Positions 2,652-5,216 of a DNA stretch of 8,475 nucleotides are shown piece by piece. The notes under the pieces were generated by a model that ran no database searches, had not been told where the DNA came from, and saw only the letters and a list, made by a program, of their open reading frames with translations. Position numbers and translations under genes: made by a program. The DNA is from a virus (Duplodnaviria > Heunggongvirae > Uroviricota > Caudoviricetes). Every line of letters starts with the position of its first letter. The stretch's first letter is position 1. The stretch is from the IMG/VR virus record IMGVR_UViG_2698536301_000009; one strand, given 5' to 3'.

Positions 2652-4549
2652 TCATCCTCTCCGGATAAGGCACGGGCGTAATCTGCCAGTGTTTTCTTGT
2701 TGGTTGCTGCACCATCCTCTTCCTGCAGGCTCGCCAGCAGTGCACTGAGATCCAGCTGCCAGCGGGAAATACTGATGCGCAGCGCCGCCAGCGCATAAAC
2801 GAAGCAGTCGAGCGCCTCATTGCGTCGCTTTTTGCTGTCCCACAGTATTTTTTTCCTGCCATCCACCCATTTTTCGACCTGCTCTTCAGCAGTCAGCTGC
2901 TGCGCTTCGGTCAGATCAAAAATATCCGGGTTATTCGGGAAGTGAACGGCACCGGGAAGCGGTTCATCCCCTTCCGGCGTCAGTGTGAAGCGGTTATAAA
3001 TCTGCTCTTTCGCGGTATCCGTACCGATTTCGGTAAGGTAAACCCCGTTTTTGTTTCGCTTACGTGGCATGCTGGCCACCGGCTTTCCGTAGACGGATGC
3101 CCCTTTAATGGGGATCACCCGGAACAGCCCATGTTTTTTCGAGCGTTCATACACAATGGTCGGGTCAATCCCGCCAGTATCCCAGCAGATACGGGATACC
3201 GACATTTCTGCACCATTCCGGCGGGTATAGGTTTTATTGATGGCCTCATCCACACGCAGCAGCGTCTGTTCATCGTCGTGGCGACCCATAATAATCTGCC
3301 GGTCAATCAGCCAGCTTTCCTCACCCGGCCCCCATCCCCATACGCGCATTTCGTAGCGGTCCAGCTGGGAGTCGATACCGGCGGTCAGGTAAGCCACACG
3401 GTCAGGAACGGGCGCTGAATAATGCTCTTTCCGCTCTGCCATCACTTCAGCATCCGGACGTTCGCCAATTTTCGCCTCCCACGTCTCACCGAGCGTGGTG
3501 TTTACGAAGGTTTTACGTTTTCCCGTATCCCCTTTCGTTTTCATCCAGTCTTTGACAATCTGCACCCAGGTGGTGAACGGGCTGTACGCTGTCCAGATGT
3601 GAAAGGTCACACTGTCAGGTGGCTCAATCTCTTCACCGGATGACGAAAACCAGAGAATGCCATCACGGGTCCAGATCCCGGTCTTTTCGCAGATATAACG
3701 GGCATCAGTAAAGTCCAGCTCCTGCTGGCGGATGACGCAGGCATTATGCTCGCAGAGATAAAACACGCTGGAGGGGTCATCCGGCGTCCATTTGAGGCCA
3801 AACGGCGTCTCTTTGTCGCCAAATTTAAGATACTGCTCCTCCCCGCAATGCGGGCAGGCAACATGAAAACGCATAAAATGCGGGGATTCACTGGCTGCAC
3901 GCTCAATCTGACAGGTGCCTCTCACTTTGGGCGTGGAGCCACGGATGGACTTTGGCCAGACCGAGCCTTCAATACGCTTATCGCCCAGGAACGTTGGAGA
4001 GCCTTCCTGTTCAATATCCTCATCAAAGGCAGCAAGTTCATCATACCCCGCCACATCCACTGACTTTTCACGGTAGTTTTTTGCCGCTTTACCGCCCAGG
4101 CACCAGAAGCCACGCCCATTGGTGAAACGCTTCATGGTGAGCGTGTTATCCCGGTGCTTTTTGCCATACCACGGGGCCAGCGCCAGCAGCGACGGAATAT
4201 CACGAATAGTCGGCTCAACGTGGGTTTTCATAAAGTTCTCGGCATCACCATCCGTCGGCAACCAGATAAGGGTGTTGCGCTGCTTATGCTCTATGAAGTA
4301 GGCATAAACACCCAGCAGCATTTTGGAATAACCGACACGGGCAGACTTCACCACATACCAGCTCCTGCTGGCGGATGACGCAGGCATTATGCTCGCAGAG
4401 ATAAAACACGCTGGAGGGGTCATCCGGCGTCCATTTGAGGCCAAACGGCGTCTCTTTGTCGCCAAATTTAAGATACTGCTCCTCCCCGCAATGCGGGCAG
4501 GCAACATGAAAACGCATAAAATGCGGGGATTCACTGGCTGCACGCTCAA
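2648..4549 (-). CDS. A: Terminase large subunit, C-terminal fragment (gpA residues about 73-641 preceded by about 64 out-of-frame residues); no sequence evidence that it is translated
   Basis: 633-aa ORF in the track. Its first ~64 residues ([11 protein letters not shown]...ASRSW) are an out-of-frame reading of copy 2, and the same peptide recurs in ORF 3607..3906. From [12 protein letters not shown] onward it is gpA-like. The track start corresponds to a TTG codon, not ATG, and I see no clear ribosome-binding site. Confidence 0.5.
3715..4357. repeat. Tandem direct repeat, copy 1 (643 bp), inside the terminase large-subunit gene
   Basis: Bases 3715-4356 align to 4358-4999 at a constant offset of 643 (e.g. 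ccggcgtccatttgaggcca at 3781 and again at 4424). About 14 mismatches counted by eye, roughly 98% identity. Confidence 0.9.
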
Positions 4550-5216
4550 TCTGACAGGTGCCTCTCACTTTGGGCGTGGAGCCACGGATGGACTTTGGCC
4601 AGACCGAGCCTTCAATACGTTTGTCGCCAAGGAACGTCGGAGAGCCTTCCTGTTCAATATCCTCATCAAAGGCAGCAAGTTCATCATAACCCGCCACATC
4701 CACTGACTTTTCACGGTAGTTTTTTGCCGCTTTACCGCCCAGGCACCAGAAGCCACGACCATTGGAAAAACGCTTCATAGTGAGCGTGTTATCCCGGTGC
4801 TTTTTGCCATACCACGGAGCCAGCGCCAGCAGCGACGGAATATCGCGGATGGTCGGCTCAACGTGGGTTTTCATAAAGTTCTCGGCATCACCATCCGTCG
4901 GCAACCAGATAAGGGTGTTGCGCTGCTTATGCTCTATAAAGTAGGCATAAACACCCAGCAGCATTTTGGAATAACCGACACGGGCAGACTTCACCACATT
5001 CACCTCACGGATGTAGTCGCTGCCCATCGCATTCATGATGGCCCGCTGAAAGGGCAGTGTTTCCCAGCGCCCTTCCTGGTATGCGGATTCTTTCGGGAGA
5101 TAGTAATTAGCATCCGCCCATTCAACGGCGGTCTGTGGCTCCGGCCTGAACAGTGAGCGAAGCCCGGCGCGGACAAAATGCCGCAGCCTGTTAACCTGAC
5201 TGTTCGATATATTCAC
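4284..5216 (-). CDS. A: Terminase large subunit, N-terminal fragment (about 286 gpA residues plus 24 out-of-frame residues)
   Basis: 310-aa ORF in the track. Residues 1 to about 286 match gpA, including the putative Walker A segment [11 protein letters not shown]; the tail [24 protein letters not shown] is frameshift read-through into copy 1. Confidence 0.7.
   Translation of the reverse strand: MNISNSQVNRLRHFVRAGLRSLFRPEPQTAVEWADANYYLPKESAYQEGRWETLPFQRAIMNAMGSDYIREVNVVKSARVGYSKMLLGVYAYFIEHKQRNTLIWLPTDGDAENFMKTHVEPTIRDIPSLLALAPWYGKKHRDNTLTMKRFSNGRGFWCLGGKAAKNYREKSVDVAGYDELAAFDEDIEQEGSPTFLGDKRIEGSVWPKSIRGSTPKVRGTCQIERAASESPHFMRFHVACPHCGEEQYLKFGDKETPFGLKWTPDDPSSVFYLCEHNACVIRQQELVCGEVCPCRLFQNAAGCLCLLHRA
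4358..5000. repeat. Tandem direct repeat, copy 2 (643 bp), inside the terminase large-subunit gene
   Basis: Same alignment as copy 1. The junction lies at about 4357/4358 (…caccacat-a-ccagctcctgctgg…), with possible cca microhomology. Confidence 0.9.

Follow-up and report, generated by a model that had tools for sequence, protein, structure and literature searches.

A tandem repeat inside the terL gene of an Escherichia coli lambdoid prophage contig is very probably an assembly artefact

The window, by which we mean the whole 8,475-nt stretch of DNA analysed here, is the entire contig CYFA01000056.1 (L022) in reverse complement, and belongs to the draft E. coli assembly GCA_001284345.1. It represents the late region of a lambda-like prophage of E. 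coli, and most of its genes lie on the minus strand. Its gene content is listed below; the annotations from nu1/nohD to essD come from the prophage of strain ET665 and from gene and Pfam tables.

Starting at 866 and running off the window start, minus strand: gpC / S49 head protease, 5' part
847-2448, minus strand: portal
2445-2651, minus strand: gpW
2648-5216, minus strand: terL/gpA, disrupted in this record
5191-5736, minus strand: nu1/nohD
6125-6358, plus strand: ylcI-like gene
6400-6825, plus strand: DUF1398 gene
7317-7796, minus strand: Rz, lysis cassette
7781-8278, minus strand: rrrD, lysis cassette
Left of the IS66-family end at 8411: remnant of essD (holin), 51 aa, lysis cassette
8411-8475, no strand assigned: IS66-family (ISEc23-like) terminal repeat inserted in essD, at the contig end; this 65-nt tail matches thousands of places, plasmids included

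The IS66-family tail adjoins IS66 tnpA, tnpB and transposase genes in TUM13064 and in the corresponding contig of a sister assembly, GCA_001285745.1 (contig CYAF01000042.1, L027, which shares the exact Rz protein of the window). The insertion in essD is real, as the sister assembly has it too. Among the listed matches in complete E. coli genomes, the junction between essD and the IS66-family sequence was not found in one piece.

The terL gene contains a direct repeat. Base-by-base comparison gave a period of 643 nt, made up of two copies of 642 nt each and one extra base at 4357. The features of the repeat, and the two reading frames that appear to be generated by it, are as follows.

3715-4356, minus strand: repeat copy 1, terL codons 73-286, T151 allele; best match 99.2% in complete E. 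coli genomes
4358-4999, minus strand: repeat copy 2, terL codons 73-286, S151 allele; 100% identical to ET665, to many genomes and to the sister terL
4284-5216, minus strand: apparent N-terminal terL ORF of 310 aa, consisting of codons 1-286 and 24 out-of-frame residues read across base 4357, deposited as N but A in the window; called in the public contig
2648-4549, minus strand: apparent C-terminal terL ORF, representing genuine gpA from codon 73 just downstream of 4357; annotated as the 557-aa protein CTY99061.1

The duplicated segment, codons 73-286, is the N-terminal ATPase part of the protein and includes the KSARVGYS motif. When either copy is removed, a single gpA ORF of 641 aa results. 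The Pfam families GpA_ATPase (PF05876) and GpA_nuclease (PF20454) hit both the 557-aa product and the 641-aa protein of the sister assembly, and the gene has the marks of a lambda gpA-type TerL: both domains, a 641-aa ORF once de-duplicated, an overlap with nu1 upstream, and gpW and portal after it, as in ET665 and L027. An exact-sequence look-up of the frameshifted 310-aa product, with either V or M as its first residue, returned no match. Among candidate C-terminal products looked up in the same way, the 557-aa form matched CTY99061.1, whose contigs include CYFA01000056.1. The apparent junction at 4357 reads ...CACCACAT on one side and CCAGCTCC... on the other. The base at 4357 fits neither of the normal terL flanks, both of which would call for a T, and the breakpoints show no homology.

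Several other loci encode terL products that begin near the same point. The same C-terminal product follows a nonsense codon, E72*, in L016-L018, where the lesion is common to three sources, and a 4-nt deletion near codon 72 in the metagenome contig L019. These lesions near the window's breakpoint look like real terL pseudogenes. Two further loci carry terL from about codon 82, fused upstream to the lambda P gene region in L021 (about 5860) and to the Rz1 lysis-gene region in L023 (about 1870).

How the two copies differ bears on where they came from. A first-pass annotation, made from the letters of the window, had counted about 14 nucleotide differences clustered in the middle of the copies, with the first ~250 bp and the last ~60 bp identical. 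The count is exactly 14, at copy-1 coordinates 3977, 3980, 3986, 3995, 4046, 4115, 4123, 4124, 4136, 4175, 4202, 4205, 4208 and 4295, so that all lie within 3977-4295; the copies are identical over their first 262 nt and last 61 nt. The range it had given, 3960-4930, takes in nearly all of the differences and misses only the last one in copy 2, at 4938. Read in the gpA frame on the minus strand, 13 of the 14 differences are synonymous at the third position and one is non-synonymous. The latter, at codon 151 (ACC/TCC), produces T151S, which is the single conservative residue change, KRFTNGRGF in copy 1 versus KRFSNGRGF in copy 2, that had been noticed at first reading. By the Nei-Gojobori method (143 synonymous sites with sd=13, 496 non-synonymous sites with nd=1), dN/dS is about 0.02; were mutation random, at least 13 synonymous differences out of 14 would have a binomial probability of about 4e-8. 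If the copies are two orthologous alleles from different loci, each under purifying selection, the excess of synonymous over non-synonymous changes, 13:1, is explained. The 14 differences are inherited variation between two separately evolving genes under purifying selection rather than decay following a duplication. Sequencing error was considered as their origin and rejected: 13 of them correspond to known allelic states, and with one exception they are synonymous changes at third positions.

These allelic states belong to two classes. Class Y is that of the DLP12-site-type prophage of strain ET665 (L001), and class X is that of the lambdoid prophage type represented by loci L005-L014, which were collected by means of the window's exact portal protein, a common one (347 blocks). 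The two classes are about 2% apart and alternate in blocks, the switch points lying where both are identical, and T151 and S151 are each found in intact 641-aa genes. Many complete E. coli genomes contain the copy 2 allele at 100% identity, and 1,159 records match it at 99% or more; this is the native allele of the prophage locus. No exact match to copy 1 was found in 5,426 complete E. coli genomes, the best reaching 99.2%. Its variant bases are X states at 13 of the 14 positions, and the X terL is intact (641 aa) in prophages such as L012. The fourteenth position, 4046, is private: the stretch 3849-4356 of copy 1 equals L012 except at this base. Copy 1 has a C there, a synonymous change (Gly176, GGG vs GGT) seen in none of the compared alleles, which is either a private variant or an assembly error.

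The first-pass view that the copies are two separate functional terL alleles, and not the product of decay, is thus borne out: copy 2 is an intact, common allele, and copy 1 carries X states at 13 of its 14 variant bases. Alignment to other terL alleles, which had been proposed as a check, yielded exact and intact matches to copy 2 in many genomes and in the sister isolate. The differences did not turn out to be sequencing errors, since they are known allelic states, nor did careful alignment raise the non-synonymous fraction above one change against 13 synonymous ones.

We then asked whether the two alleles are truly adjacent on a chromosome. Compared with ET665, the window falls into three collinear blocks, 1-425, 427-4356 and 4358-8410, with one unmatched base at each breakpoint. 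The breakpoints at 426 and 4357 were picked out by this comparison independently, before the ambiguous bases of the public record were known. The window and CYFA01000056.1 differ at only two positions, and these are the same two: 426 and 4357 are N in the record and A in the window. It follows that CYFA01000056.1 is a scaffold in which one-N gaps divide the sequence into three pieces.

1-425, minus strand: scaffold piece a, internal part of gpC / S49 head protease; 100% identical to the sister L027 and to L012; bounded on the right by N426
426, no strand: one-N gap in the public record, A in the window; N in L022, with 55 nt in its place in the sister
427-4356, minus strand: scaffold piece b, with the gpC 5' part, portal, gpW and terL codons 73-641; 50 mismatches to the sister, 14 to L012
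2648-4356, minus strand: terL codons 73-641 in piece b
4357, no strand: one-N gap, A in the window, the apparent duplication junction; N at L022 position 4119
4358-8475, no strand assigned: scaffold piece c, from terL codons 1-286 through the lysis genes to the IS66-family end; 100% identical to the sister L027 over 4,118 nt

The first of these gaps indicates how such an N is to be read. Where the record has N426, the sister assembly carries 55 nt, and the window is without 54-55 nt of gpC sequence found in each of the best matches listed. When a 301-nt query across 426 was searched, each listed best match consisted of two pieces spanning 355 record bases, and none of them contained the "deletion". 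A 54-nt in-frame deletion in gpC (about 18 codons, window 400-450, before ...MNCSAGQ...) had been a candidate and was rejected, as the position is an N that stands for 55 nt. Because N426 hides 55 nt, the single Ns of CYFA01000056.1 are gaps in the sequence and not ambiguous base calls. The same holds for the notion that the A at 4357 is a non-templated filler base left by illegitimate end joining, which we rejected since that base is N in the record. On the opposite strand to gpC, a 145-aa ORF at window 243-680 (plus strand; L022 7796-8233) appears among the gene calls of the public contig, probably spuriously, because the N interrupts gpC.

The sister assembly is free of Ns here. It matches the window at 100% over 4358-8475 (4,118 nt, with the same IS66 insertion in essD) and over 1-425, and differs at 50 sites over 427-4356. 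Its terL is single, intact and 641 aa long, and carries the copy 2 (S151) allele. Both 3715-4356 and 4358-4999 align to the same 642 nt of the ET665 and L027 terL genes. The strain's true terL at this locus is single-copy and Y-type.

The three pieces do not share one ancestry. Window 4358-8410 is 99.7% identical to ET665 and only 94.7% identical to lineage X, and window 427-3382 has zero mismatches to L012, a member of lineage X. When the sister is taken as the representative of Y, the diagnostic sites of piece b run X over 676-3284 (36 sites), Y over 3383-3848 (13 sites) and X over 3977-4295 (13 sites, plus the private 4046). The lineage switches inside piece b fall within 3285-3382 (X to Y) and within 3849-3976 (Y to X), where the lineages are identical. 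Such switches may reflect a natural mosaic allele or a consensus that flipped in a collapsed repeat. A Y-to-X switch resembling that of piece b occurs in PapRG-04-4, and the X-Y-X mosaic could be a natural recombinant allele.

This pattern might also be accounted for by a 642-bp duplication in place, followed by gene conversion of copy 1 by the terL of a second prophage over about 3849-4356. The variant patch at 3977-4295 lies between stretches in which the two lineages are identical, as expected of a conversion tract, and natural mosaic alleles of this kind, such as that of PapRG, do exist. However, two rare events would be required, the junction is an N, the sister gene is intact, and lineage-X sequence runs 2.9 kb further to the left of copy 1, which a local conversion leaves unexplained. 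We give this history almost no credence.

If the duplication were genuine, determined sequence should continue across its junction, and the junction should be present in relatives or other genomes. Instead, the junction base is N, the sister is single-copy, and the junction was absent from our searches. Among the listed best matches in 5,426 complete E. coli genomes and in phages it did not occur in one piece, all of these matches being split there; a one-piece match with one mismatch could tie with the listed two-piece ones, so the negative results for the junction, and those for 426, are supportive rather than exhaustive. With 0-2 free bases allowed at its centre, the junction had no match in metagenome or viral contigs. 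An exact search with the 36-nt junction containing A also found no match in viral, GTDB-genome or metagenome contigs, a result that is uninformative since the A is N. What would be expected of a scaffold gap, on the other hand, is what the record contains: a gap character at the junction, and sequences on either side that cover one and the same reference interval.

The first-pass annotation had offered two origins for the repeat, unequal recombination between related lambdoid prophages or a chimeric assembly of reads from two of them. The first of these corresponds to a real partial tandem duplication of terL (642 bp), in which an illegitimate or unequal exchange between co-resident lambdoid prophages joined codon 286 to codon 73 and the N is simply an uncalled base. 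Its appeal is that the left and right flanks come from different prophage lineages, as an exchange would give, and that the IS66 insertion in the holin gene means the prophage was already defective, so that a broken terL would be tolerable. It is set against the N at the junction, in a record whose other N covers 55 missing bases; breakpoints without homology; the intact single-copy gene of a near-clonal sister; and the failure to find the junction in the searched collections (listed best matches, metagenome and viral contigs). Moreover, a real junction would consist of unique k-mers, through which short reads would assemble without an N. We regard such an exchange as very improbable, and unequal recombination as unsupported. 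The chimeric-assembly alternative is the one that stands, given the N at the junction and the single intact terL of the sister.

We conclude, with a probability of roughly 0.93, that the apparent tandem duplication is an artefact of scaffolding or gap closing during a draft assembly from short reads. A single record includes two alleles, and pieces b and c belong to different prophage lineages. Piece c (4358-8475) would be the strain's true DLP12-site-type prophage, its left end reaching terL codon 73. Piece b (427-4356) would have been built largely from reads of a lineage X prophage in the same read set, or would be a consensus in which both prophages were collapsed. Piece b at its right end and piece c at its left end cover the same 642 nt of terL, and the 14 mismatches between them would have blocked merging, leaving the ends abutting across a residual one-N gap. 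The N suggests that junction-spanning reads were absent.

The length of the overlap requires a further step. Since an overlap of 642 nt is atypical of De Bruijn contigs, we assume a later extension step, and the ends probably overran each other by iterative edge extension in a gap filler. We tested whether the pieces end as raw de Bruijn unitigs would, at a fixed distance of k-1 from the nearest X/Y SNP. The observed distances, 61 nt and 34 nt, are inconsistent with one another, and this explanation was rejected: the pieces do not simply stop where unitigs would, and extension at a later stage is more likely to be the cause. Where a gap is negative or has been overfilled, scaffolders and gap fillers of this sort may leave just one N behind. 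GapFiller lengthens both edges of a gap one base at a time and settles allelic differences by majority vote; for closure, the extended edges must overlap and the resulting size must agree with the estimated one (PMC3446322). Page et al. describe SSPACE and GapFiller as greedy, so that false joins are possible, in a widely used bacterial pipeline that runs SSPACE and 120 GapFiller iterations (PMC5320598). In the literature we found no paper naming these assembly or WGS accessions. A comparable structure is seen at about 2750-2960 of L020, a metagenome scaffold, where a 55-nt duplication flanks a 100-N gap inside terL, an artefact of the same class.

As the source of the second allele, another lambdoid prophage in the same genome is most probable. 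It is usual to find several lambda-like terL genes in one E. coli genome, at up to 5 places, and GCA_041227445.1 contains two lineage-X prophages, which together make a second prophage the simpler source. The same assembly artefact would arise if the second allele had been contributed by another E. coli strain in the DNA, through mixed culture or contamination; after all, two versions of the 642-nt segment prove only that two templates were in the read set, not that they shared a chromosome. Against this, several terL copies per genome are common in E. coli, and the two lineage-X prophages of GCA_041227445.1 sit together in one genome. We consider a second strain unlikely, and prefer a second prophage as the origin of the X-type sequence.

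Altogether, the tandem terL repeat is an ordinary assembly artefact and has no biological significance. Because the A at 4357 is an N only in the deposited sequence, the scaffold gap could not be seen from the letters of the window alone. Turning ambiguity codes into ordinary bases (N to A) hides scaffold gaps from any reading that uses only the sequence, and a gap hidden in this way can be mistaken for a frameshift in a gene, for an in-frame deletion, or for a tandem duplication that includes a "filler" base. When a window is cut from a draft assembly, its Ns should be retained or marked. A signature of purifying selection between "copies" likewise speaks to the separate evolution of the alleles, and is silent on whether their juxtaposition is real.

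The gene itself is that of a known system, the gpA TerL of phage lambda. The order nu1, A, W, portal, C is the same, and the window DNA is 98.6% identical to lambda A/nu1; nothing biological sets the two apart, as the gene only appears broken in CYFA01000056.1. The alternation of two allele classes in blocks is shared with the mosaicism of lambdoid prophages, for example the Sp prophages of O157 Sakai. Here, however, the switch that makes the duplication coincides with an N gap, and for this reason it is no evidence of recombination in vivo. The closest likeness is to the duplicated flanks that scaffolders or gap fillers such as SSPACE or GapFiller may leave at unclosed gaps: a single N lies at the repeat junction, both sides represent one genomic segment, its two versions differ, probably owing to a multi-copy region, and a gap-free related assembly has a single copy. 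The present case differs in its 642-nt overlap, which is long for such artefacts.
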